From assembly GCA_024275415.1 (NCBI GenBank), contig JAJRZD010000012.1, positions 17,796 to 81,795 of the forward strand: DNA of 64,000 bases, in the 5' to 3' direction. Below the pieces are notes generated by a model, which did no database searches, was not told where the DNA came from, and saw only the letters and a list, made by a program, of their open reading frames with translations. Below, piece after piece: positions 39,828 through 64,000 of this stretch (position 1 is its first letter; each line of letters opens with the position of its first letter). This stretch comes from an archaeon. GTDB lineage: Archaea > Asgardarchaeota > Thorarchaeia > Thorarchaeales > Thorarchaeaceae. The translations under genes and the position numbers were made by a program.

Positions 39828-42473
39828 TTGGCTTCCCTCAAGCCAGAATACAACAAGGTGTTTTTTATGCTCAGTAAAACGCGCGCCATAATGATATTTG
39901 GAATTATCATATTCCTTCTTGGCTCTACAATCTCCGTCAATTTGACAGACAATGCCAAGACAAATCAAACTCAGGACAGCATGGATGGTTCCACGTCGGA
40001 TGAGTTCTCTGCTTCATCGGTCAATTTGCAGACTGACTCTTGGAAAATGAACCATCTTCCAAATGGGGATTTTGAGGGGTGGACAAATCCACATAACCCA
40101 CAGTATTTTACTACCACACGAACCACTGAAAGATATGTGTGGTACGCATCGTCGCCGTATCCTGTCAACGAGTCCAGTAGGTCTCTAGGGATGCAGGTAC
40201 GCGCTGTAGACAATGCCTATCCTTCCGAAGCACGGTTATCGCCACAGAATCAGGTATTCTGGAATAACCCCACGAATCTCACGATGAGATTTGACTACTT
40301 TTTGGATGCTTTCATGAACCCATCTACAAACAGCTATTTCAAGCTTGAAATCACAGTTAAAGCGCTTTCCAACATCCGGCTGACATATTATCTGGCTGGA
40401 AATACGACCCTCTCGAACTCTACATACTACGGATATTATGTCCTAGACAGTCCACTATCACAATGGAATCGTTTTGATAGGAACGTCACTCAAGACTTGA
40501 TTGCTGCGACTGGAAATACTCCTACTCAATTCAATACGTTCTATTTCTATCTTAAGACTAACGAGAGTTCCTATCAAAGAACATTCATTGATGACTTTTA
40601 TCTGGTGAATGGCACAGTACGGATTGGAGGAAGCGTGAACAATGGCAATTTTGAAACCTCAGGGACATGGTATTGGCTGACAAACAATGATCCAGGGGAT
40701 ATCGTTCAGACTTCGGATCGCCAGAACGGTGATTGGGCAGCTAACATGACCGTGGTATCACGAGGGAACATTAGTAAAGCAACAATCTCCCAGCGAGCAG
40801 GTGTAAGACTTGCAGACCAGAACCCTGACCGTTTCATGTTCTATTGGAAGATTGATCAGTGGATTAATCCCAATCAGTACTCATATGCTTACTTGTCTGT
40901 GGAAATGGAAAATCAAACAAGTTCATTCTATCTATACTATTGGTTTGCATACGCAGGGACACCGGCTCCATTCTCATACAGTGGCTACAACCATGTCCAA
41001 GTAGATGGCTTCAACACTACGGGTTCTTGGAACCTGTTCGACCGCAGCATATGGGAAGATATAACGTCGTTCAACTCGACTTCAGAGGTCTTTGTCAGGG
41101 ACATCGAGTTCATCGTTTATGCTGACAGATATCCAAGCACGGTCAGTCTCTTTGTTGATGACTTGAAGGTTGAGGCTGCTATTCTGAACGACATGAGCTA
41201 CGAAGATCAAGGAGATGTTGGAGATTATGTCCGTTCTTGGGGATCATGGAATATCGAAACAGCAAACGAATTCAGAGTTACAGACTTCGCATATACCGGC
41301 TCTAAGGCTGCAAACCTGACAATGACACCCTCAACCTATGTAGGTTTTTATCGGAATCTGAAAGCCATGCCCTTCAACGCATCGACTGAGGTTATCCTAG
41401 ACTTCAATTGGTACTTAGACGAATTTACATCTACTGGGAACGACTACATCGAGTTCTATTTTTACTTTGGAACCGATGTAGGAATTCATTACTTGATTGC
41501 TGCTGGGCCTGGTGCGTCGGTGTCCAACACATCTACTGAGAAGTATATCTATATTGAAGGCGCCAATATGACGGGGGCATGGCGCAACGCAGAACTGGAT
41601 CTCGCGGCGGATTACTTGGCCCTATTTGGGACTGTGCCTGATACCACTATTAGCGACATTTCTCTGATTGCCGAGGGGGATGCTGGTGGCCGATTGGAAC
41701 TCATTCTTGATGACCTGTACCTTGTTGAAGGGACATGGCCCAGAGTGTCTGGTCTGACTCAATTACCAGCACTGCCAGAAACAGGGATGGATGTCAACAT
41801 TTCTGTATCAACATACGATAAGAATCTAGATTCTGTTCTCTTGCGGTATCGGGTCGATGGCAGTTCGTGGAATTCTCTCCCGATGAGCAAGGAGGGTGCG
41901 TCCATATTCACCGCTACTATTCCCGGGCAAGACTGGGCGTCATTGGTAGAATACTACATCTATGCGAATGACACCTACGGACATGAAACTCTAGGAATGT
42001 CTGGCTCGGAGTACTACTCGTTTACCGTGCAGGATACGATAGCTCCGACAATGCAGGTTCAAGGTCTTACCAATGAGTCGACAGTTGGCGGAGTGGTAGA
42101 CATGACCGTTATACCAGACGATAACAGTTCAGGCATCCAACGAGTCGAGATATCTGTTGATGGAACCACTGTATCGAATGATACCACATCGCCTTACGAA
42201 TACAGCTGGGACACGGTTTCTGAAGATAATGGACAGCATGTCATCGTGATAAAGGCTGTCGATAATGCTGGGAACACGTACGAGATGAAGTACATTGTCA
42301 CAGTGTATAACGCTGAGACCTCAACACCAACCACACCGACTACCTCAACGAATACACCAGAGCCTCCTGGTTCACCGGACATGCTACTGATCGTTGTGAT
42401 TGGAATCGCAGTTGTTGCTGGCGTGGTCGTCATTCTCTTCGTTCTCTTGCGACAACGAACCTTGAGCCATTAG
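39828..42473 (+). CDS. Large surface/cell-envelope protein (N-terminal signal/TM, many N-glycosylation sequons, Ig-like C-terminal domains, Thr/Pro linker, C-terminal TM anchor)
   Basis: The N-terminal hydrophobic segment is MIFGIIIFLLGSTISVN. Frequent N-x-S/T sequons occur. The C-terminus is ...TSTPTTPTTSTNTPEPPGSPDMLLIVVIGIAVVAGVVVILFVLLRQRTLSH. Confidence 0.6.
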   Translation: MASLKPEYNKVFFMLSKTRAIMIFGIIIFLLGSTISVNLTDNAKTNQTQDSMDGSTSDEFSASSVNLQTDSWKMNHLPNGDFEGWTNPHNPQYFTTTRTTERYVWYASSPYPVNESSRSLGMQVRAVDNAYPSEARLSPQNQVFWNNPTNLTMRFDYFLDAFMNPSTNSYFKLEITVKALSNIRLTYYLAGNTTLSNSTYYGYYVLDSPLSQWNRFDRNVTQDLIAATGNTPTQFNTFYFYLKTNESSYQRTFIDDFYLVNGTVRIGGSVNNGNFETSGTWYWLTNNDPGDIVQTSDRQNGDWAANMTVVSRGNISKATISQRAGVRLADQNPDRFMFYWKIDQWINPNQYSYAYLSVEMENQTSSFYLYYWFAYAGTPAPFSYSGYNHVQVDGFNTTGSWNLFDRSIWEDITSFNSTSEVFVRDIEFIVYADRYPSTVSLFVDDLKVEAAILNDMSYEDQGDVGDYVRSWGSWNIETANEFRVTDFAYTGSKAANLTMTPSTYVGFYRNLKAMPFNASTEVILDFNWYLDEFTSTGNDYIEFYFYFGTDVGIHYLIAAGPGASVSNTSTEKYIYIEGANMTGAWRNAELDLAADYLALFGTVPDTTISDISLIAEGDAGGRLELILDDLYLVEGTWPRVSGLTQLPALPETGMDVNISVSTYDKNLDSVLLRYRVDGSSWNSLPMSKEGASIFTATIPGQDWASLVEYYIYANDTYGHETLGMSGSEYYSFTVQDTIAPTMQVQGLTNESTVGGVVDMTVIPDDNSSGIQRVEISVDGTTVSNDTTSPYEYSWDTVSEDNGQHVIVIKAVDNAGNTYEMKYIVTVYNAETSTPTTPTTSTNTPEPPGSPDMLLIVVIGIAVVAGVVVILFVLLRQRTLSH

Positions 42474-55668: not shown

Positions 55669-56406
55669 TCAAACATCGATACCTAGAGCTATATTGGTTT
55701 GCTTGTATGCGTCTTGATAGTCCGTCTTTGAGCTCAGCGCTCTGATCGCATCAATCGTATCAGGGATATGAACACAATGAGAGTCGATGACTTGTACCAA
55801 TGACAATTCAGGGTCTAGCATTATGCTCTCCGCCCATAATGCGGTTTCATACAAGTCCCCTGTTCTTCGAATAGTCCTTCGCACATACTCGAACACGCCA
55901 TCAGTAGTGAGAAGATCCGGCCATGTTGGCAATATGAGTGTCCGATCTTGCAGAGAGCGAAGGATATCCGTCTTTGTCGGCATTTGCTTGAACTCTACGA
56001 CCACCAAAGATGTGCTCATCAAAAGTGAAGGAATCTTGAAACTTGTGACATGAAATCTTACTTCGGAAAAGACCTTTTTCCATTCGTTTGACAGCAATTC
56101 CGGAAATCGGGGATAGTCATACTGGATAGCATCTATCGCCCCTTCAGGACGCATCAACTCACCACTGGCCCTGACAAGTGTGCAAAACACTCGTGCGATC
56201 CCGAAATCAGTGTCCAGACGATACAGACATCTCGTCAACGAAACCATATATGGTATTGGTATCCTCACCGAATCTCTACCTATTGCATGTGCATAATTCG
56301 CACAGGAGATGAATACAGGCACATCCGCTACTGAAAAATCCTCACCTGCCTGAAAGACTACCTTCTTTTCTAGCTCAGCGTAAAGTGGCTTGTTCTTTCT
56401 TGCCAT
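55669..56406 (-). CDS. Hypothetical protein (245 aa) at the boundary of the AT-rich island
   Basis: ORF only. I recognise no motif. Confidence 0.35.
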   Translation of the reverse strand: MARKNKPLYAELEKKVVFQAGEDFSVADVPVFISCANYAHAIGRDSVRIPIPYMVSLTRCLYRLDTDFGIARVFCTLVRASGELMRPEGAIDAIQYDYPRFPELLSNEWKKVFSEVRFHVTSFKIPSLLMSTSLVVVEFKQMPTKTDILRSLQDRTLILPTWPDLLTTDGVFEYVRRTIRRTGDLYETALWAESIMLDPELSLVQVIDSHCVHIPDTIDAIRALSSKTDYQDAYKQTNIALGIDV

Positions 56407-56742
56407 AGGTTGGTCTTGGTTCTATTCTTCAATTCTTAGTACGATTGCATCCAATGCAATCAAATCGAAGATAACAAATCCAGGCCCGCAGGCTTTCTTG
56501 GATGCAGCAAAAGATAGGTTCAGGAATCTGGCATCATACCTAGAATACTCCATCTTTGCGAATGCAATCATCATTTCGATTGCATTATTCCTGCTTGCAA
56601 AATCTGCATGGCATTTCATGCAGCCAACCTAGAGCTGTCTGTCTGCATAGGGGACAAAGCAAAATGATTTTCAAGGTGTTGAAGATGAATAATCTTCTCT
56701 ATCATATCCGGATAGGATGTTTGTAGAATAGGAGATAATGAG

Positions 56743-57066
56743 ATGGATGGTATAACTAGCCTGATTGTAATGCTACTTCTTCAGGGAATAGCAGCAATTC
56801 TATTCTTACTGATGATTAATCATATGAGGTTAGTAGGGACTATTGGTACGGCTCGCGAAACAGTACCTTTAAGGGAGAAGGTCGCTGTTTTAGTTGCATA
56901 TCTCGGTTCTATTTCTTTGCTAACCATGATATCGCTAATTATTGGTTTGGACTCAATCTCAGGTCCCATTTATGGAGGTTCATTTGCCCTCGTAGCCAGT
57001 GTGCTTGTAGCGCTTCTGGTTCTTGGAAGGGAGTACCTGGACTCTGAAGCCGATACAGAGCAGTAA
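56743..57066 (+). CDS. Small hydrophobic protein (3 TM), island-associated
   Basis: The ORF is 107 aa with three hydrophobic helices. It lies in the AT-rich segment. Confidence 0.35.
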   Translation: MDGITSLIVMLLLQGIAAILFLLMINHMRLVGTIGTARETVPLREKVAVLVAYLGSISLLTMISLIIGLDSISGPIYGGSFALVASVLVALLVLGREYLDSEADTEQ

Positions 57067-57278
57067 ACATGATAATTGGTTTCACTTGTTTGTGTTCTTT
57101 ATATAAAGGAAATGAGAACAGGTGGATCAAGTACTACTGGCGTGTAAAATGGCTTGTTGGAATTATGTACCTGCTCGCAATAGTTAAGTTTTCGTTTATT
57201 GTTATGTTACTTATCTTGATTGCATTCCTTTGGGGCAGAAGCATTGAATACTATACATTGCACTAATGTAATTGGCAG

Positions 57279-57623
57279 GTGGTGATTTATATGATAGGAG
57301 CTATTCTACTGGCATTGGGTTCGTCTTGCCTCTTTCTAGTCATTGCACTTGACACATTTTCAGAGAAATTCGAACACACATTCATGCGGGGCTTATCACA
57401 TAGGATCTCGAGTTCTCCTACATTCAATCTCGTATCATACGAAGGCACCATTCCCTTCTTCCTTCTTGGTTTGCATCTACTCATTGAAAAAACCCAAAAT
57501 CCGATGCTGCTTGATGGATATCCCGACCTCTGGAGTCGAATAGTGACTTGGTTGCCTTTGGTATTCGGTTTTGCTCTTGAATATGGTGCGTTTCGGACGA
57601 TTTGGAATGGCTCGAAAGAATGA
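57279..57623 (+). CDS. Small hydrophobic protein (3 TM), island-associated
   Basis: The ORF is 114 aa. The helices are MIGAILLALGSSCLFLVIAL, IPFFLLGLHLLI and IVTWLPLVFGFAL. Confidence 0.35.
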   Translation: MVIYMIGAILLALGSSCLFLVIALDTFSEKFEHTFMRGLSHRISSSPTFNLVSYEGTIPFFLLGLHLLIEKTQNPMLLDGYPDLWSRIVTWLPLVFGFALEYGAFRTIWNGSKE

Positions 57624-57944
57624 GAATGCCATTTATGATATTGCAGAGGAAATTTTAGAAGCAAATGACAGCCCCCTGAATGGTTTCGAGGAGGCTATGC
57701 AGTACCTTCAGGGTTGCAAAGGGAAATATCGTTTTGTTGATGAGGACACATTTCTCAAACGACTATCTGATCGAGATGACGATATCGGCATTCTTGCGAA
57801 ACAACACATTTCACCGCCAGATGCAGATTAGTCTTTCTCAATGCGATTTCTCAGATGTCTGCTTATTCGCTGTTTGGTTATCTTATCACCGATTAGAATA
57901 AGTTAGTTGGGCTTCGAAGAACTCCGGCTCAATGCAGCTACATC

Positions 57945-58784
57945 ATGGTGGATGTGCGCCTCCACGACATCAACGTCGTCACAGACCTCGACCAGCACGA
58001 CCCTAACTCGTCCACTCCTGATGAGCCTGTTGAATATGATGGTACTGTAACAGGTCAAATCACCTCTGAGGCGTCTATATCCCAAGGTGATGATTTGAGT
58101 TCAGCCGGAGAACTTGTAGTAATATGGTGGGAAGGGTGGTGGCCAACATTGCATATCGAGATTCTTAAACCAGGTGGCTCAGTGGCCACCCAAATAACAG
58201 GTCAAGAAGGTATTCTTGTATATCTCACTGTGGATATTATTGGTTCTGTCAATATAGTCGATGGGTTCATACTAGATTGGGTATTGGACCTGTTGAACAT
58301 CTCAGATGCACAATGGCAGATTCTGATGGGAGTGATGTTCTTGATCACTGGTTCAATAATTGGATATGTTCTCACAAAGTTTTTCATGGCTGCATTACTC
58401 GCGTTCATGGTTGTGGATGCGTCGTTCAACTCTGGTGTATTGGGAGTTGGAATTGGATTTGCAATTCTGACCTTAGTAACTACTTGGAAATTGAGTGACC
58501 TTGTGTATCAACAACGCCAGCAATACGATGCTCCGGTAATCGTTTGGTTAGTCCTCATGATGATGGCATTTAATACATTCAGAAGAAGAGGTTCCGCAGA
58601 CTTCCGAGAGGATCTCAAAGACAAAGCTTCTGACCTGTTCATGTTTGCAGCTGAAATGCTTGGTTACAGTTCTGGAACAAAAATAGGAGTTTTATTCGGA
58701 AGATTCACATATATCTTCCTGGGTGCTTGCATAGCAGCAAGTGCACTTGCAATTCTCAGCATCTGGAATGAGGCTGGTAAATAG
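57945..58784 (+). CDS. Paralog 1 of WWP-LHI membrane protein family (conserved N-terminal module + ~5 TM)
   Basis: MVDVRLHDINVVTDLDQHDPNSSTPDEPVEYDGTVTG...VVIWWEGWWPTLHIEIL...TVDIIGS, then polytopic TM. Confidence 0.6.
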   Translation: MVDVRLHDINVVTDLDQHDPNSSTPDEPVEYDGTVTGQITSEASISQGDDLSSAGELVVIWWEGWWPTLHIEILKPGGSVATQITGQEGILVYLTVDIIGSVNIVDGFILDWVLDLLNISDAQWQILMGVMFLITGSIIGYVLTKFFMAALLAFMVVDASFNSGVLGVGIGFAILTLVTTWKLSDLVYQQRQQYDAPVIVWLVLMMMAFNTFRRRGSADFREDLKDKASDLFMFAAEMLGYSSGTKIGVLFGRFTYIFLGACIAASALAILSIWNEAGK

Positions 58785-58795
58785 AGGAATGGCCG

Positions 58796-59188
58796 ATGAT
58801 ACAAGATGTCGTTAATTTCATTATGTGGATTTGGGACTTGATCGGAATCGAGATTGTCGTATTTCTTCTACCAGGCATAGTACTGCAAATCACCAGCCAA
58901 GAGCTGGAAAAACGCATTCGCAACAATCTGGATAATGCTGTTCCGAACTCGGTTCAAAGAAGGCCTCTATCTGAGAGATACTTGAGTAATAGGAAACTCT
59001 GGGGTTTCACTTTGAACATCCTACTGTACGCCTCTCTCATCTTGAAGGGCATATTTGGATACATATTCCTTGGGTTTCTTGGAGCTTTTCTATTTACAAT
59101 TCCAGAGATCATGCTCGACAAAACGCGATATACAGTGTTTACAATAGAGTCCCGTATGAATCTGCTAGTACAAGAAAAGAACGAGTGA
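58796..59188 (+). CDS. Small membrane partner protein of paralog 1 (130 aa, ~4 TM)
   Basis: It starts 12 bp after the paralog 1 stop. TM helices flank a basic loop (KRIRNNLDNAVPNSVQRRPLSERY). Confidence 0.45.
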   Translation: MIQDVVNFIMWIWDLIGIEIVVFLLPGIVLQITSQELEKRIRNNLDNAVPNSVQRRPLSERYLSNRKLWGFTLNILLYASLILKGIFGYIFLGFLGAFLFTIPEIMLDKTRYTVFTIESRMNLLVQEKNE

Positions 59189-59198
59189 TGGCGGAAAC

Positions 59199-59900
59199 TT
59201 GAGAGCACCGCAGCTGACGCAGGATTTGCCTGCCGGAGAGAACCCTCCTCAAACCGGATTGGATGGCACCAATAGTGGCCCCGGTGAAAAGTACCTAATA
59301 ATGTTGGATAACGAACTAGTGTCTGCGTTGGCTAATATAGTGACATATTGGATCGGGTGGTGGCCAGTCCTCCATATTGTGATTTCTAAAACATTCAACC
59401 CGGATGTATCATTTAGTCCACATGGTACAGTAGATCTCTTAGATCCTGGTTCGTTGGAAGGCTTTTCGTATGCTTTCTATGGTGCTCAGAGCATGACGCA
59501 ATCAGATGTGGCTGAATTGATGGCTGGTGGGCTTGGAGCTGCAACCACTCAATATCTAATATTGTATTGCGTGGCAATCATTGGACTCCATTTCGTCTTT
59601 CTGCTTTCTGTGATTAATTTTCTTAGAAGTATGACTCTGACCGAGATCGAAGTTCAGCAAATGTTTGTTGGGATTGTATTTAACTCAATATTGGTTTCTG
59701 CAGCGGCTCTTCATACACTCAATGGAATGAAGGAAGGAATTCGAGGAATGTTAGAATACTTTTCATCCCGATACAAAGCATCCAAACCTGGCCAACCCGG
59801 AGCCATAGGGAGAGGCAATGTTATTGTGCTTCTAATGAATTTCATTCTAATAGCAATGACAATATGCGCTTTTGTTGGTCTCACACAAGGGTGGTGGTAG
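59199..59900 (+). CDS. Paralog 2 of WWP-LHI membrane protein family (TTG start; lacks the VD-R-HD-NVV prefix)
   Basis: LTQDLPAGENPPQTGLDGTNSG...IVTYWIGWWPVLHIVIS...TVDLLDPGS, then TM helices. It starts 11 bp after the preceding stop. Confidence 0.55.
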   Translation: MRAPQLTQDLPAGENPPQTGLDGTNSGPGEKYLIMLDNELVSALANIVTYWIGWWPVLHIVISKTFNPDVSFSPHGTVDLLDPGSLEGFSYAFYGAQSMTQSDVAELMAGGLGAATTQYLILYCVAIIGLHFVFLLSVINFLRSMTLTEIEVQQMFVGIVFNSILVSAAALHTLNGMKEGIRGMLEYFSSRYKASKPGQPGAIGRGNVIVLLMNFILIAMTICAFVGLTQGWW

Positions 59901-59981
59901 ATTGGGTGAAGAACTAAAGCATATAAGACCATCCTCAATGTCATCATATCCCAGTATTTCCATCGAAAAGGAGGAGCAGGA

Positions 59982-60341
59982 ATGGATATCGTAGTATTAT
60001 ATTCAGTGGGCATCCTTCCTTGCGTAATCGGAATCTTGTATGCAATCAATGCCAATGGCAAAATTGGAAAATATACACGAGGTGAGATTGAGGGAATCTC
60101 AGGTTTGGGAGTCTGGTATGCAGACAATATCAATAGCTTTCAAAGAATTGGTGTGTTTTTTTGGGTGCTGTTCACTTCCCCTCATTTCTTTAGCCTTCTA
60201 CTTGCATATCTGTTCTTTCCTGAACTGGCGACTATTACTCTTGGTGCTGTTTACCCTGGGATACTTCTCAGTACGCTTGGAGCGTTCGCGGTTACTTACA
60301 ATCAAAAACAACTATCCAAAACAAACGATATATACCGATAG
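59982..60341 (+). CDS. Small membrane partner protein of paralog 2 (119 aa, ~4 TM)
   Basis: Hydrophobic ORF 81 bp downstream of paralog 2. It is unrelated in sequence to the other partners. Confidence 0.4.
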   Translation: MDIVVLYSVGILPCVIGILYAINANGKIGKYTRGEIEGISGLGVWYADNINSFQRIGVFFWVLFTSPHFFSLLLAYLFFPELATITLGAVYPGILLSTLGAFAVTYNQKQLSKTNDIYR

Positions 60342-60739
60342 GGGGAAGATAGAGATGATCCAAGGAAAATCTCTACTCATTCTCTTTTGTTGGTACGCTA
60401 TCAGTCGAACTACTACATTTAACTTTCTTGATACTTGAGGCTTTGTAGAATAAATCACCCCCCGTTGAGCTTTACTTGCCAACATGGGTGTTCACCTTGA
60501 TGGAAATCACAGACGCACAGTGGGACATGATAATGTCTAGCATCAAGTGGGAATACTACCAGTCACACAATTGACCTGATTTTTGGGCTCAAAGAATCGT
60601 CAAGGACTCATGCGGGGTTGTTAGTTGTGAATGTCATTTGTTTCGCAGCTATAGTTGTTATTGCAAATGGCATAGCATTCTTAGGTTGGTAAAGTATATT
60701 GACACCCAGTACCGCCATTGAGCCTTCGGAGGAAGCGAC

Positions 60740-61312
60740 ATGAGTGAGCTGGATCTCGTATATCTATTCTGGATATTCTGTGCCACATTGGTCACATACC
60801 TTCCACTACTATACTATCTGATGGCTGGCTCAACCATCAAGGGTGAAGTGGAAAGAGGTGCCATCCGCACTCCTGCTGGGTTTGGGGCGAGGTATGCGAT
60901 GTTCCTTCTATCGGCATCCCTGACAAAGAGGAAATTGTTTAATGCCATTGTGTTGACCAGCCCTCTAACCACCTATTGGACGTTCTCACTCGTACTGGTT
61001 CCTCAGGCATTCCTGAAACTTCTCTATTACTCGTGGTGGTTCTGGCCTCTTCTCGCACTTCGAGGGTTGACAAGTGTCAGGCCGCCTGAAATCGAGGGGT
61101 TCGAAGAGTTCGGCGAGGAAACATATCGACAGGTGCTCCAGCAGGAGAACCCCATTGCGGAAGCCCTCGTGCTCATCAGGCACTACGAGAAACCACCTGT
61201 CCATCGTCAATATATCAAAGCAAAGGAGAGCCTCCTGCGTAGGGATGATGAAGTCGGTGACGTGTTTCGTGCCGCGTATGCTAGATTCGGGGATGAGTCT
61301 AGAGGGTTGTAA
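60740..61312 (+). CDS. Membrane protein (3-4 N-terminal TM + acidic soluble C-terminal domain), island-associated
   Basis: The ORF is 190 aa. The helices are LVYLFWIFCATLVTYLPLLYYLM and LLYYSWWFWPLLAL. I recognise no family. Confidence 0.4.
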   Translation: MSELDLVYLFWIFCATLVTYLPLLYYLMAGSTIKGEVERGAIRTPAGFGARYAMFLLSASLTKRKLFNAIVLTSPLTTYWTFSLVLVPQAFLKLLYYSWWFWPLLALRGLTSVRPPEIEGFEEFGEETYRQVLQQENPIAEALVLIRHYEKPPVHRQYIKAKESLLRRDDEVGDVFRAAYARFGDESRGL

Positions 61313-61653
61313 ACAGCTGCGCTAAACGTACCCAAACGTGGACGTCCCTTAGATGGACAGCCGAAGTAATGCATAGGGCTTTATAGACCCGACCACTCCT
61401 ACAGGAGTATGAGGACGACATGGCACACAAACGGCCTCGCAGAGTCCACCCAGTGCCGTTCTCTTGGAGTACAACACTCTGGTGACCAAGGTTGTACAAC
61501 TAAAAATGAACGGTAAGGCACATTCCTATCCTCAATACGATAGACAACCTCGACCAGCAGAACCCGAACTCGTCGACACCACCCCCAACGCAAGATCCGC
61601 CTACGGGAGGTTCGCAAAGTACTATCGATTATGATGGCACAGGTTTTGGAAAG

Positions 61654-62367
61654 ATGACAGGTACACATTATTTATTTTCCACAAGATATGCTCAGCAACA
61701 AGCCGATTCAAGTCTGTCTAGCTGGTGGACTGGTTGGTGGCCAGTGTTGCACGTTAAGGTGTCTAACATGGTTCTAAACAATCCAGTCAGTTATCACTAT
61801 ACTGTTGATCTGCTAGGCAGTTACAACATCATAGAATCAACGGCACAATTAACTGATGGTGAAGGACTATTTGATATTATTGATGGTGCTGTCGCATTTG
61901 CATCCGCAGCCCTGTATGGTGCTTTATACAGTGTTGGTTTTGGTCTTATTGCAGTCGCCGAGAATCTTTATCTCTCCCCCGATCCGTATACTAAGACCCT
62001 TGTGATAGGAGGTGCAATTGCCATAAGTATAACTACATTAGCAGCAGTAGCATATTGCGAGTACCGTGTATCCACCGGTGATTGGACCCATGCAACAGCG
62101 GGTTGGTTCTATGTTGCCCTTATGTACATGTTTGCCAGAATGATTGTAGGATACAAAACAGCGAAGGGAATCCTATCCACTCCAATACTGACCATCTTAC
62201 TGACCCAGCTCTCAATGGTTAACCCGCTATGGTATGCGGTGGATGTAGGACTTCTGGATACCTATGCTGCAATATGCAAATGGACAAAATTGGTGATAGC
62301 TGCTACGTTTGCTTTTTATATTCCATTGGTAGCATACCACTGGATGACTGCCCTCGGATGGCTGTAG
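61654..62367 (+). CDS. Paralog 3 of WWP-LHI membrane protein family; conserved 5' module is disrupted upstream of the annotated ATG (possible N-terminally truncated or pseudogene copy)
   Basis: ...SSWWTGWWPVLHVKVS...TVDLLGS, then ~5 TM. In-frame upstream sequence (61510-61653) encodes NTIDNLDQQNPNSSTPPPTQDPP...TIDYDGTGFG but has no canonical start codon. A separate short ORF (MAHKRPRRVHP...) carries the RVH prefix. Confidence 0.5.
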   Translation: MTGTHYLFSTRYAQQQADSSLSSWWTGWWPVLHVKVSNMVLNNPVSYHYTVDLLGSYNIIESTAQLTDGEGLFDIIDGAVAFASAALYGALYSVGFGLIAVAENLYLSPDPYTKTLVIGGAIAISITTLAAVAYCEYRVSTGDWTHATAGWFYVALMYMFARMIVGYKTAKGILSTPILTILLTQLSMVNPLWYAVDVGLLDTYAAICKWTKLVIAATFAFYIPLVAYHWMTALGWL

Positions 62368-62925
62368 GTGATTCCTATGCAAGTGGACATCAATGTTCTC
62401 CAGATATCTCTAGCCCTCCTCTTTATTTTTGGAGGGCTAGTATTCCTGAATCGTTCGACCCGCGTATCAAGAAAAATGGTTCATCTTGCTGTGGTGTACC
62501 CTGACGACGAAGACTATCAGGCGAAGATATCTCGACGTGAGAGAGAAACAAGACGAGTAGTGACGGAATGGAAACTGCTGGTCCTGCTGGAACTTGTATC
62601 CTGCGCCATTGGTGGGTATCTAGCAATAGGGTTCTTCGGATCGTTGTTCTTTGTAACAATGATTCTTTCGTCTCATTATATCAATAGAAGGAAGATTCCC
62701 CGTACAGATTATGATCCTTTGGTCGAATTAGCCAATAGAATTTTGGTAGTTGACATCCACGGAAACACGTCCTTGCACAATGCCAAGAACGCAATACTCC
62801 AGTTTATTCAGCAGCGCAAACTGACTGGACAAGAAACAACAAGACTATTGGACTATCTCATTCAATCGATGGCAATAACCAATGAGATCGAATCCGAACT
62901 TATAGGAAGCATCGGAAAGAGATGA
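62368..62925 (+). CDS. Membrane partner protein of paralog 3 (185 aa: 3 TM + soluble C-terminal domain)
   Basis: It starts immediately after the paralog 3 stop (TAGGTG...ATG at 62368). TM helices are ISLALLFIFGGLVFL and LLVLLELVSCAIGGYLAIGFFGSLFFVTMIL. Confidence 0.45.
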   Translation: MIPMQVDINVLQISLALLFIFGGLVFLNRSTRVSRKMVHLAVVYPDDEDYQAKISRRERETRRVVTEWKLLVLLELVSCAIGGYLAIGFFGSLFFVTMILSSHYINRRKIPRTDYDPLVELANRILVVDIHGNTSLHNAKNAILQFIQQRKLTGQETTRLLDYLIQSMAITNEIESELIGSIGKR

Positions 62926-63044
62926 CACATATAATGCAACTACAGCTCTATGATCCGATAGTGTATGTCTGGGCCTTCAGTGCCCTTCTACCTCTATTCT
63001 ACTGGCTGCTTTTCAGTTAAGGAAGCAAGCTTGCTGGGGTCGGA

Positions 63045-63284
63045 GTGCGGTTCTTTGACACTGCTCCGCGGACAGCAATCCTCTCAGAAGCAATTGGTAT
63101 TGGAGGAAGCATCATCCACATCATAATTGTTCCAGAAAGCATCTTGACAGTTGTCTTTCTGGCCGTGTGGGCAACCCCACTCATGATCGCAATGGCATAT
63201 CTCTCACAAGCATTACGGCATAGTATTGAGTCCCATCAATCTAACATATCCTCCTCAGAGAACATCCCTGACAGAAAATCCTGA
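63045..63284 (+). CDS. Small hydrophobic protein (79 aa, 2 TM)
   Basis: ORF with two hydrophobic helices. It lies between cassette 3 and cassette 4. Confidence 0.3.
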   Translation: MRFFDTAPRTAILSEAIGIGGSIIHIIIVPESILTVVFLAVWATPLMIAMAYLSQALRHSIESHQSNISSSENIPDRKS

Positions 63285-63346
63285 TTAATGATATCTTCTT
63301 TGTCGTTTCCTCCCGGGTCATCAAGTACGTGGGGGTCCTGGGCTAC

Positions 63347-64000
63347 CGCATGGACGGTTACTCCCTGGTGGACATGCGCGTCCACGACGTCAACGTGGTA
63401 GCAGACCTAAAAGCACCAAATTCAACATCACCTAATCCTAGTGTTCCAATTGAGAACGACGGCACCTTTACTGGTGTGTCTGAACATTCTGAAAAGAAAG
63501 TGGTTGTGGAGGATACAATGACAGTTTCTCTAGGTTTCATCAATATTGTGTGGACTCTGAATAACTTCTGGCCTCAACTACTAATTGATGTTCTGAGTCC
63601 AGATGCGGATAATCAACCATCAGTGGTACTACCCCCACTGATTTCCCTGAGAATTGATTTGCTTGGTGCAATAACAGTGAATACATTTACCATCTACGAT
63701 TTCCTTATTGATTCCGTTGGTGGCGACATCGGTGTACTCATAGGATGGATAGTCGAGTTCGTTAAGGACTTCATCATAGTGGTAAATTTCGCAGTTTTAG
63801 TTACTATGGCTTGGACTAGCTTTAGATGGGCAGATGGAGCTAGAGCGACCCAGCAATACTATGCAATGGGTGGTGCTTTAGCTGCAGGGTTGATACTTCT
63901 TGTAAGTAGTTTCACATTGGTAGAAGGTTTTCATCAGGCATCTCGAGAACTTGGCCTTGATGATGCATGGAGTACATACTTTTATCTCACAGTTCTAATA
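63347..64000 (+). CDS. Paralog 4 of WWP-LHI membrane protein family (divergent; runs off window end)
   Basis: MDGYSLVDMRVHDVNVVADLKAPNSTSPNPSVPIENDGTFTG...IVWTLNNFWPQLLIDVLS...RIDLLGA, then TM helices. The 5' ~45 nt are ~80% identical to paralog 1 at the nucleotide level. The alternative start is the ATG at 63371 (MRVHD). Confidence 0.55.

Follow-up and report, generated by a model that had tools for sequence, protein, structure and literature searches.

A possible array of orphan tail-plus-partner cassettes from a polymorphic surface-protein system in Thorarchaeota

The genes of an AT-rich island in the 64 kb stretch of Thorarchaeota DNA analysed in the present study (the window, i.e. that whole stretch) quite possibly form an array of orphan cassettes (a C-terminal domain with its cognate partner) of a polymorphic surface-protein system. 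No full-length gene of the family was observed in the 64 kb; only truncated cassettes, one putative decayed tail and one frameshifted partner were found (Table 1). The preliminary description of this DNA had presented the island as AT-richer than its flanks, and this is confirmed, with a G+C content of 0.42-0.45, except for 0.49 at 61-62 kb, compared with mostly 0.50-0.53 (range 0.48-0.54) in the trp operon. The small ORF at the left edge of the island, which showed neither a significant Pfam family nor a match to the partner sets, is only an unproven candidate member of the cassette system. The small ORF ahead of par4 also had no match in the partner sets.

Table 1. Features of the island, in coordinates of the window; transmembrane and hydrophobic segments were called with simple hydropathy windows (Kyte-Doolittle)
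Feature	Coordinates	Strand	Remark
Small ORF, 107 aa, 3-4 hydrophobic segments	56743..57066	+	Left edge of the island
Frameshifted (pseudogenised) partner, no tail gene upstream	57279..57831	+	Overlapping ORFs 57279-57623 and 57571-57831
par1, 279 aa, ATG start	57945..58784	+	Cassette
Partner 1, 130 aa, about 3 hydrophobic segments	58796..59188	+	Cognate of par1
par2, 233 aa from TTG, frame open from 59169	59199..59900	+	5'-truncated mosaic cassette
Partner 2, 119 aa, about 3 hydrophobic segments	59982..60341	+	Cognate of par2
Putative decayed fifth tail remnant (TVDIIG region), broken by stop codons	60410..60553	+	tblastn with P0001 and P0002, E 0.008-0.04
Orphan partner gene, 190 aa, soluble C-terminal tail	60740..61312	+	Homology to partners in L003
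par3, ATG 61654 to stop 62367 (237 aa)	61510..62367	+	Shared module extends upstream in frame
Partner 3, 185 aa, about 4 hydrophobic segments and a soluble tail	62368..62925	+	Cognate of par3
Small ORF, 79 aa, 1-2 hydrophobic segments	63045..63284	+	Between partner 3 and par4
par4, ATG 63350, frame open from 63272, runs off the window	63308..64000	+	Cassette

First, the full-length relatives of these genes, proteins of 1,060-2,090 aa from Thorarchaeota MAGs, reveal what the conserved module is. Each begins with a Sec-type signal peptide with a conserved QLVAATAWTAD, followed by an ectodomain of about 800-1,800 aa that matches Glce_b_sandwich and DUF2341 in Pfam and ends in concanavalin-A-like lectin-fold repeats. 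The previously described motif, LVDMRIHDINVVADL, corresponds to the final beta-strand of the last repeat; the ectodomain repeats have the same ending, and about 60 aa ahead of the motif are also conserved in the long and mid-size members. On the 3' side of LVDMRIHDINVVADL, a proline-rich linker ending in DGT leads into a small alpha/beta domain (WTGxWPxLH, TVDLLG) and then a hydrophobic helix bundle. The family match occupies the extreme C-terminus of the full-length proteins, and a small polytopic membrane gene stands directly downstream. AlphaFold2 modelled the motif of P0058 as strand 293-303 of a beta-domain (block-mean pLDDT 85-96) followed by a disordered linker, and this beta-domain was assigned by Foldseek to the concanavalin-A-like lectin/glucanase fold (best E 3e-8). 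The module had been taken for the cytoplasmic N-terminal domain of a complete protein; this is ruled out, and the module represents the C-terminal strand of an extracellular lectin-fold repeat together with the linker and the alpha/beta domain. Two further suggestions, distant Yip1-domain proteins tied to the GTPase and phase-variable permease cassettes operating through site-specific inversion, are very improbable. Only the general form of a multi-pass membrane protein with a short motif before its first helix speaks for them, whereas the motif is part of an extracellular beta-sandwich, and PF04893 was matched neither by any paralog at E<=1 nor by any of 74 members at E<=0.01, with no fold match. 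Moreover, no long inverted repeats, and nothing convincing that could drive phase-variable inversion, were observed in the island; as had been described, there was no recombinase family among the ten island ORFs scanned (Pfam, E<=1) and no tRNA or Rfam match in the window.

Second, four plus-strand paralogs (57945, 59199, 61654 and 63350) are indeed related through a common conserved 5' module, with pairwise tblastn values of E 1e-13 to 1e-5, well outside what chance would give in 64 kb. The module is, however, not complete in all of them: the motif is present in par1 and par4, degenerate in par3 and missing from par2, in which the linker (QDLPAGENPPQTGLDGT) is all that is left ahead of the alpha/beta domain and the membrane bundle. 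Par1 consists of the junction motif MVDVRLHDINVVTDL, with only four residues of constant region ahead of it (CSYI, from 57933), the linker DQHDPNSSTPDEPVEYDGT, a small alpha/beta domain with WWEGWWPTLHI and TVDIIG, and a membrane bundle of helices; its AlphaFold2 model (pLDDT 83) has residues 1-40 disordered, four strands and five long helices at 121-278, and its nearest full-length-alignable relative is P0005 in L002 (40.5% over 269 aa). Upstream of the canonical par3 ORF, the degenerate motif and an intact linker (LNTIDNLDQQNPNSSTPPPTQDPPTGGSQSTIDYDGT) continue in frame to 61510 with no ATG, GTG or TTG, and no canonical ORF covers the motif; among full-length relatives, the best is a 286-aa cassette of L006 (E 5e-46, 35% over 287 aa). 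Par4 retains 19 aa of constant region (SSRVIKYVGVLGYRMDGYS) upstream of its motif LVDMRVHDVNVVADL, the DNA of its junction (about 63309-63411) shares 73-86% identity with those of 13 other loci, and its protein is 74% identical to P0101 over residues 806-840. The translated remnant of a fifth tail matches P0005 (blastp, E 4e-5) within a stretch (60344-60739) that has five stops; this assignment is weak by itself and is supported by its location ahead of a partner gene. The DNA identities quoted previously also hold (81% over 42 nt for par1 and par4, 85% over 34 nt for par1 and par3), largely because the amino acids are identical. With 6 identical codons against 3.7 expected and 5 against 2.8 expected, respectively, there is no evidence of gene conversion or recent exchange among the four copies, and recombination has been detected between genomes instead.

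Third, par1 to par3 are each followed by a small membrane ORF with 3-4 hydrophobic segments, starting 11, 81 and 0 bp, respectively, after the stop codon, within the 0-81 bp originally given. These partners are mutually unrelated within the window, as had been noticed (best E 0.06), and each has homologues in other genomes. Partners 1 and 3 are homologous to the genes downstream of the closest relatives of par1 (149 aa, L002, E 1e-11) and par3 (198 aa, L006, E 2e-16), and partner 2 is 78% identical to a 113-aa partner in L017 (E 2e-67), with a weaker match to a 120-aa partner in L001. The orphan partner gene is homologous to a 210/223-aa gene of L003 that directly follows the gene of a 2,092-aa full-length protein (E 1e-23 to 2e-25) and also related to a 131-aa partner in L003. 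The frameshifted partner matches a 179-aa partner from L034 in two frames (tblastn, E 5e-18; 57291-57569 for aa 3-95 and 57568-57810 for aa 96-176), and is also related to the 191-aa partner of a 1,319-aa protein in L031. Across 33 distinct loci, a small membrane ORF was found downstream of 59/59 complete tails, in a count in which the choice of downstream ORF favoured hydrophobic ones; all 59 are on the same strand, start -26 to +133 nt from the tail stop and have at least one hydrophobic segment (at least two in 54). Membrane bodies are related in 28 of the 33 cassette pairs with related partners, and in only 56 of 1,711 pairs overall by BLAST, whereas all junctions are related. Partner type and tail type therefore co-vary (Fisher odds ratio 330, p 2e-40; reached in 0 of 2,000 permutations), and the three pairs in the window all fit, so that the idea of an idiosyncratic small membrane partner for each variable body is supported.

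The exchange of tails between genomes is seen in orthologous full-length genes, in which everything 3' of the motif has been replaced jointly with the partner gene. The orthologues in L004 and L033 are 70-94% identical up to residue 1050 and 14-28% thereafter, and the same step is observed between L001 and L031 and between L006 and L014; identity breaks off immediately after HDINVVADLS, and the orthologues have unrelated partners downstream. Tandem spare cassettes, which retain differing lengths of the 5' constant region, occur in L014 (a full-length gene and three cassettes), L031, L003, L034, L012 and L017. Recombination of a conserved 5' cassette onto variable bodies, as the preliminary description had envisaged, is thus borne out between genomes by sharp breakpoints at the motif and by tandem arrays in Thorarchaeota. 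Mosaicism is also seen within the tail of par2: positions 59511-60353 of the window, in par2 and partner 2, are 78.7% identical in DNA to 2416-3256 of L017, an 844-nt match limited to the stretch that begins mid-tail and extends through the partner, with the 5' part of the tail unrelated. P0003, on the same contig as the window, consists of a body fragment joined to a new junction. Both the membrane part of par2 (dN/dS 0.23, 129 codons) and partner 2 (0.13, 113 codons) are under purifying selection. An ordinary, fast-evolving membrane anchor, with the small gene as a co-assembling subunit, the short copies as duplicated stand-alone membrane proteins, and a diversity that reflects relaxed constraint with ordinary duplication and decay, is rather unlikely. 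The single architecture of the tails, the stop-transfer anchoring expected of hydrophobic helices, proper start codons on some short copies, dN/dS below 1 and the lack of a toxin signature are all consistent with such an anchor. However, relaxed constraint gives neither an identity step from 70-94% to 14-28% at one motif nor replacement of the downstream gene, and the mosaic cassette with 79% DNA identity over its 3' part only, the arrays of 5'-truncated copies with constant-region pieces, the partner-only genes, and the 56 of 1,711 related bodies despite related junctions throughout would remain unaccounted for.

In the collections searched, the system is found almost only in Thorarchaeota. 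A profile built from the family recovered 178 cluster representatives (E<=1e-3) among 1.84 billion proteins. All source-named members (5/5) and source-named junction fragments (5/5) are from Thorarchaeota MAGs, and 28 further loci belong by title to Thorarchaeota (14), "uncultured archaeon" (12), Hermodarchaeota (one) and "Promethearchaeota" (one); the guess of an Asgard origin is also borne out. Neither the tail nor the partners had a match in Pfam, NCBIfam, PADLOC or PDB, and the membrane-embedded tail matched no described family. In organization, the system resembles the bacterial polymorphic toxin systems (CdiA/CdiI, Rhs, LXG and others) in the definition of Zhang et al. 2012 (PMC3482391), in which the N-terminal body of a large secreted protein is constant and its C-terminal-most domain is exchanged through recombination. 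The short conserved junction motif at the breakpoint, the cognate small gene directly downstream, the tandem orphan cassettes that keep a constant-region piece, the partner-only genes and the decayed copies are also shared. The VENN motif in CdiA has a role comparable to that of the junction motif here. No relation in sequence or fold to described trafficking, pre-toxin, toxin or immunity domains was detected; moreover, the stalk of the Thorarchaeota protein consists of concanavalin-A-like repeats, its tails form one alpha/beta and membrane-bundle family rather than many unrelated enzymes, it shows only a Sec signal and no dedicated export system, and the lineage is that of Asgard archaea. Membrane-active effectors with membrane immunity include CdiA-CT of Escherichia coli EC93 with CdiI, TspA/TsaI of Staphylococcus aureus and Tme/Tmi of Vibrio. 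Their hydrophobic C-terminal effectors reach their targets through type V, VII or VI secretion, and each is matched by a small polytopic membrane protein that confers immunity and whose gene is sometimes multi-copy. The Thorarchaeota pairs are alike in form; however, no homology was detected, and the modelled tails look like stable integral membrane bundles. Polymorphic toxin systems are generally absent from most archaeal lineages, and those present appear bacterial in origin (PMC3482391).

VARTIG of Thermococcales (PMC8416519) is likewise an archaeal, lineage-specific hypervariable island with a large secreted protein, a recombining C-terminal region and small, mostly membrane proteins downstream that track the subtype. 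Its organization has been compared with that of polymorphic toxin systems, no toxin is recognisable in it, no counterpart in other archaea was reported, and Asgard archaea are not mentioned in that text (PMC8416519). VARTIG has Ig domains, one of them variable, whereas here the lectin-fold repeats are constant and the membrane bundle is variable, and the two show no sequence relation. Self/non-self discrimination is among the hypotheses proposed for that comparable module (PMC8416519), and a similar function, with the lectin-like protein anchored in the producer membrane by its variable tail and the tail and partner forming a matching barcode, is possible but less probable here than a toxin-like one; with similarly modest probability, the barcode would decide what follows when cells meet, e.g. 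adhesion, membrane exchange or fusion. This possibility rests on the same architecture, and the lectin-fold ectodomain, the single fold common to all tails and purifying selection on both tail and partner fit it; it is also the better fit to a tail expected in the producer's own membrane, as the helical bundle suggests. Its logic is presumably analogous to that of IdsD/IdsE of Proteus or TraA of Myxococcus. On the other hand, it is the ectodomain that is constant, and most of the variable part is embedded in the membrane, whereas surface recognition determinants are usually exposed and variable; partners with no tail (60740 and the pseudogene at 57279-57831) are easier to understand as collected immunity genes, and no signalling or effector component was identified.

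Several results also argue against a toxin. The tails are all of a single family and a single architecture, unlike the mixture of unrelated toxin folds in typical systems, and the helices are long enough that Sec would be expected to insert the tail in the producer's own membrane. Orphan arrays are not always 3' of a full-length gene, as in the window and in the minus-strand array of L001, and purifying selection on the membrane part of par2 suggests that truncated cassettes may function alone. Par1 has a normal ATG, which also stands on this side. The architecture is polymorphic-toxin-like, and we infer a putative toxin/immunity function. Herein, we tentatively propose that the island could well hold spare tail-plus-partner cassettes serving a large, lectin-like protein on the surface of Thorarchaeota (Asgard archaea). 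A stored tail and its partner would be shifted onto the expressed full-length gene by homologous recombination, which would take place at the conserved junction and in some cases within the tail; bacterial polymorphic toxin systems work in this way. The lectin stalk would touch neighbouring cells, and the membrane tail might act on a membrane, e.g. as a leak or pore. The cognate partner would bind the tail inside the membrane and thereby neutralise it in cells carrying that partner.

The four plus-strand paralogs (par1-par4) claimed for the 56.4-64.0 kb island were observed in the present study and matched one another with tblastn E values of 1e-13 to 1e-5, a range in which the 64 kb contained no other match. 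The preliminary description was also accurate regarding the small hydrophobic ORFs downstream of the first three paralogs (partners 1-3), the AT-richness of the island (G+C 0.42-0.45, with one kilobase, 61-62 kb, at 0.49, and mostly 0.50-0.53 in the adjacent trp operon) and the absence of tRNA genes; no tRNA and no Rfam family were present. No significant Pfam family match was obtained for the paralogs or partners, and neither a full-length gene nor a lectin repeat was found within the window. The DNA identities previously quoted for par1/par4 and par1/par3 are correct and are mostly accounted for by identical amino acids; the gene conversion among the window copies proposed from them was not borne out by a codon-level test, in which the excess of identical codons was slight and non-significant (6 observed against 3.7 expected, and 5 against 2.8). 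A metagenome scan aimed at the same chromosomal site in related strains revealed no relatives of the 245-aa ORF flanking the island.

Table. Coordinates of the features described, in the window unless another locus is named
Feature	Position	Strand	Remark
par1	57945-58784	+	4 aa of constant region and full junction motif
Partner 1	from 58796	+	11 bp past par1 stop
par2	59199-59900	+	linker only
Partner 2	from 59982	+	81 bp past par2 stop
par2 membrane part with partner 2	59511-60353		segment compared with L017
par3	61654 (ATG)-62367 (stop)	+	half a degenerate motif; no start codon before linker
Partner 3	from 62368	+	0 bp past par3 stop
par4	from 63350 (ATG)	+	19 aa of constant region (SSRVIKYVGVLGYRMDGYS) and full motif; continues past window end
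Frameshifted partner gene	57279-57831	+	no tail upstream
Decayed tail fragment	60410-60553	+	upstream of orphan partner ORF
Orphan partner ORF	60740-61312	+	homologous (E 1e-23 to 2e-25) to the gene that partners the 2,092-aa protein; RDDEVG..FR at aa 156-183
245-aa ORF	55669-56406	-	between trp operon and island; no Pfam family
881-aa ORF	39828-42473		Pfam Big_7; product probably located at the surface
Segment within 881-aa ORF	40842-41333		marginal tblastn match to ectodomain of full-length family protein P0045 (E 0.007, 26% over 184 aa)
RDDEVG..FR site	L003 8799-9284
Nucleotidyltransferase/HEPN pair	L003 9325-10120	opposite strand	toxin-antitoxin type; inside array after the 2,092-aa protein

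A profile built from seven sequences was searched against 1.84 billion proteins, and 178 cluster representatives were found at E<=1e-3 (103 at E<=1e-10); the module sought in other genomes is thus present there. The profile match lies at the extreme C-terminus in approximately ten family members with lengths of 719-2,092 aa. In complete members, a typical signal peptide and the conserved sequence QLVAATAWTAD come first, the ectodomain consists of repeats of ~230 aa, each with the same ending, and the Pfam domains Glce_b_sandwich and DUF2341 occur in the ectodomains of some members. In long and mid-size members, conservation reaches ~60 aa upstream of the motif with which the module had been said to begin. 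The conserved consensus before the junction is ...IYTSFxKTGKLWW..GGxGAIYSSIDG....PIAECDNASRVIKYVxILGYRYSSYx, that directly after the boundary is LVDMRIHDINVVADLxRHDPxAPxPDEPVEYDGT, and the family junction motif is LVDMRIHDINVVADL. The pre-junction repeat matched no Pfam family, and its fold was assigned solely via the AlphaFold2 model of P0058, a 557-aa family protein (pLDDT 80). In this model, residues ~110-303 form an all-beta domain (block-mean pLDDT 85-96) in which the motif is the last strand (293-303), followed by a disordered linker, a helix, four strands and membrane helices. Foldseek placed the beta domain in the concanavalin-A-like lectin/glucanase fold, with matches to the carbohydrate-binding module of phage J-1 Dit (E 3e-8), calreticulin lectin domains, GH16 glucanases and legume lectins. 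The par1 model (pLDDT 83) agrees, as its first 40 residues are disordered and are followed by a helix, four strands (WxGWWPxLH, TVDIIG) and five long helices. By these models and the Foldseek fold, the module is not the cytoplasmic N-terminal domain envisaged earlier; its three parts are the strand that closes an extracellular lectin-fold domain, the proline-rich linker behind it and, after the linker, a small alpha/beta domain that is conserved. The alternative of Yip1-type proteins (PF04893) found no profile or fold match and, like phase variation, failed the tests, making both highly improbable. In approximately 20 of 152 representatives (P0024, P0031, P0035, P0041 and others), the start coincides with the conserved Met of LVDMRIHD; the ATG within the motif is the one picked by gene callers, and truncated cassettes therefore look like complete genes with a conserved N-terminus.

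The C-terminal part following the motif (the tail, comprising linker, alpha/beta domain and membrane bundle) is where orthologues diverge. When sliding identity was computed between orthologous full-length proteins, values dropped at the junction from 70-94% (residues 1-1050) to 14-28% for loci L004 and L033, from 52-84% (32% in one 50-aa window) to 14-30% for L001 and L031, and from 50-86% to 20-38% for L006 and L014. The L004 and L033 proteins align near-perfectly through LVDMRIHDINVVADLS and the alignment collapses in the linker, and their directly downstream genes, of 169 and 101 aa, are unrelated. These breakpoints suggest that the 3' tail has been swapped at the motif together with the downstream gene. 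The copies in the window keep the constant region in decreasing amounts, in the order par4, par1, par3 and par2, and cassettes (tail plus partner) across loci keep 0-170 aa of this region. The par4 junction DNA shows 73-86% identity to junctions in 13 other loci, a similarity that would be enough for a recombination substrate. The membrane part of par2 with partner 2 is 78.7% identical in DNA to L017, whereas the 5' part of the par2 tail has no DNA match to this locus and only 35% protein identity, indicating that crossovers also occur inside the tail and that the membrane bundle and partner travel together. For the same comparison, dN/dS was 0.23 over 129 codons of the membrane part and 0.13 over 113 codons of the partner; thus, both are under constraint although par2 lacks an ectodomain, which fits cassettes that are used often or work alone. 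Past recombination has also left chimeras, as illustrated by P0003, a 339-aa protein in which a par1-like body fragment runs in frame into a new junction and tail; since it is encoded on the same 86.8 kb contig outside the window, the family continues beyond the window. P0003, P0149 and a 519-aa minus-strand ORF of L001 each carry a tail fragment or extra junction ahead of a new in-frame junction with its tail, and such ORFs are likely scars of past cassette replacement.

Tandem, same-strand arrays similar to that in the window were mapped by a six-frame profile scan of all fetched loci: a gene of 1,061 aa followed by three cassettes in L014, of 1,319 aa followed by two in L031, and of 2,092 aa followed by two in L003, with four or five cassettes each in L034, L012 and L017, and four in L001 that run in the opposite direction to the full-length gene there. 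Every assessable complete tail (59/59) was accompanied by an ORF of 72-238 aa on its own strand, with the ORF start at -26 to +133 nt from the tail's stop; all of these ORFs have at least one hydrophobic segment and 54/59 at least two, the latter count being somewhat inflated because the selection rule favoured hydrophobic ORFs. Partner type tracks tail type: among 1,711 cassette pairs, partners were related in 33, membrane bodies in 56 and both in 28 (Fisher odds ratio 330, p 2e-40), and no label permutation out of 2,000 reached this value. All three pairs in the window conform to this rule, par1 and partner 1 matching P0005 and its 149-aa partner in L002, par2 and partner 2 matching cassettes in L001 and L017, and par3 and partner 3 matching a 286-aa cassette and its 198-aa partner in L006. 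A plain membrane anchor with an accessory subunit is a rather doubtful account of such pairs, as it leaves the step-like breakpoints, truncated arrays and partner-only genes unexplained. The architecture and exchange pattern are those of a system of polymorphic C-terminal cassettes, in which a membrane partner is inherited along with the tail. Otherwise unrelated partner families have in common a short soluble C-terminal motif, RDDEVG..FR, which was observed in the sites listed in the table and in partners in L012, L014 and L022, and occurs twice in the 161-aa ORF of L003; different membrane partners may use this motif as a shared handle on the cytoplasmic side.

All five source-named family members, and likewise all five named junction fragments, come from Candidatus Thorarchaeota MAGs. 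A genome scan with a narrow junction alignment gave no match, and one of species-representative genomes with a broader junction alignment gave 28 further loci, titled Thorarchaeota (14), only "uncultured archaeon" (12), Hermodarchaeota (1) and Promethearchaeota (1). The family was found only in Asgard MAGs and contigs without a lineage label, and it belongs to Thorarchaeota. A word-indexed protein search with the junction profile returned short fragments only, none of which showed a full-length gene on the source contig. Many family loci (L007-L034) sit at the ends of contigs or on contigs of 2-7 kb, whose edge frequently truncates a cassette; assemblies evidently break in these repetitive, variable regions, and copy numbers per genome are therefore underestimated.

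Several known systems were compared. Contact-dependent inhibition systems (CdiB/CdiA/CdiI) carry filamentous haemagglutinin repeats, a VENN pre-toxin motif and a CdiB transporter; the full-length proteins lack such Pfam families and have LVDMRIHDINVVADL as the junction motif. In Rhs/YD-repeat toxins, YD repeats form a shell and the Rhs core terminates with PxxxxDPxGL; the 19 long members examined gave no Pfam match to RHS or YD families, and the stalk is concanavalin-A-like. In polymorphic toxin systems, 3' cassettes are recombined onto a constant 5' gene body as toxin-immunity pairs (PMC3482391), and the breakpoint pattern of the L004/L033 type is their defining pattern. First, the proteins observed here are large and secreted, with signal peptides, and combine an N-terminal body that is constant with a last C-terminal domain that varies. 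Second, stand-alone C-terminal cassettes, which would replace the resident tail through recombination, occur in L003, L012, L014, L017, L031, L034 and the window, and mosaic cassettes exist. Third, the genetic pattern of a roughly one-to-one downstream partner is present, its protective role being putative. However, the RHS, haemagglutinin, LXG, pre-toxin and known toxin/immunity domains of these systems are absent, and the tails show no similarity to a known toxin domain or fold. Export in the described systems follows type II, V, VI, VII, PVC, PrsW-dependent or MuF-like routes, often with autoproteolytic processing (PMC3482391), whereas the only export feature of the full-length proteins is a Sec-type signal peptide, and neither these proteins nor the called neighbours yielded a processing peptidase or a secretion component. 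Thus, judged from sequence, the organisation is that of a polymorphic toxin system as defined previously (PMC3482391), with none of the known parts. Among archaea, the nearest analogue is VARTIG of Thermococcales, in which a large arCOG07710 protein contains Ig domains, the C-terminal one being hypervariable (PMC8416519); only the logic of organisation is shared, as no Ig-type Pfam domain was found here and a helical membrane bundle forms the variable part. Most archaeal lineages are described as generally lacking polymorphic toxin systems, and the few archaeal ones look bacterial in origin (PMC3482391). Literature searches yielded nothing relevant on such systems in Thorarchaeota or Asgard archaea; an earlier mention of the present family in a 2019 mBio survey of archaeal polymorphic toxins is possible.

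The reading favoured in the preliminary description, a swapped cassette with its partner in the manner of polymorphic toxins, therefore stands in outline through the breakpoints, arrays and co-variation, but not in the nature assigned to the module. The tail might quite plausibly, though still tentatively, be a membrane-acting effector neutralised by its cognate partner, because partner-only genes, decayed copies, an AT-rich variable island and one-to-one pairing are products of toxin/immunity evolution. Less likely, the pairs serve identity or compatibility, consistent with tails that look like stable integral membrane bundles, which should stay in the producer's membrane, and that all share one fold. 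Herein, we also raise the more speculative and improbable idea of a native Thorarchaeota system, not a bacterial loan, in which a lectin-like surface protein carries an exchangeable membrane-embedded "barcode" read by the cognate small membrane partner; whenever the membranes of two cells came into contact, exchanged material or fused, the pair would decide whether they are compatible. If true, kin discrimination would here take place within the lipid bilayer, which to our knowledge has not been described in archaea.

The finding is real and coherent: sequence comparison points to a polymorphic system of Asgard archaea that is clearly defined and apparently undescribed, and whose suggested functions are putative. 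Genes annotated as scattered hypothetical proteins become one system, covering ~7.6 kb here and dozens of loci in other Thorarchaeota MAGs, and its rules are clear: the lectin stalk is constant, the junction motif is defined, the membrane tail can be swapped and the partner is inherited with it. The junction motif and profile provide a simple means to find and count these loci, which account for assembly breaks at such places, and the small size of the tail/partner pairs would allow toxicity and rescue to be tested directly in a heterologous host. Thorarchaeota are members of the archaeal group closest to eukaryotes, and no described example of such a conflict or recognition system native to Asgard archaea was found. 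If this is a conflict or recognition system, the polymorphic-cassette strategy would have arisen with entirely different parts, and the system would point to membrane-level cell-cell interactions in a lineage whose intercellular contacts bear on ideas about the origins of eukaryotes.
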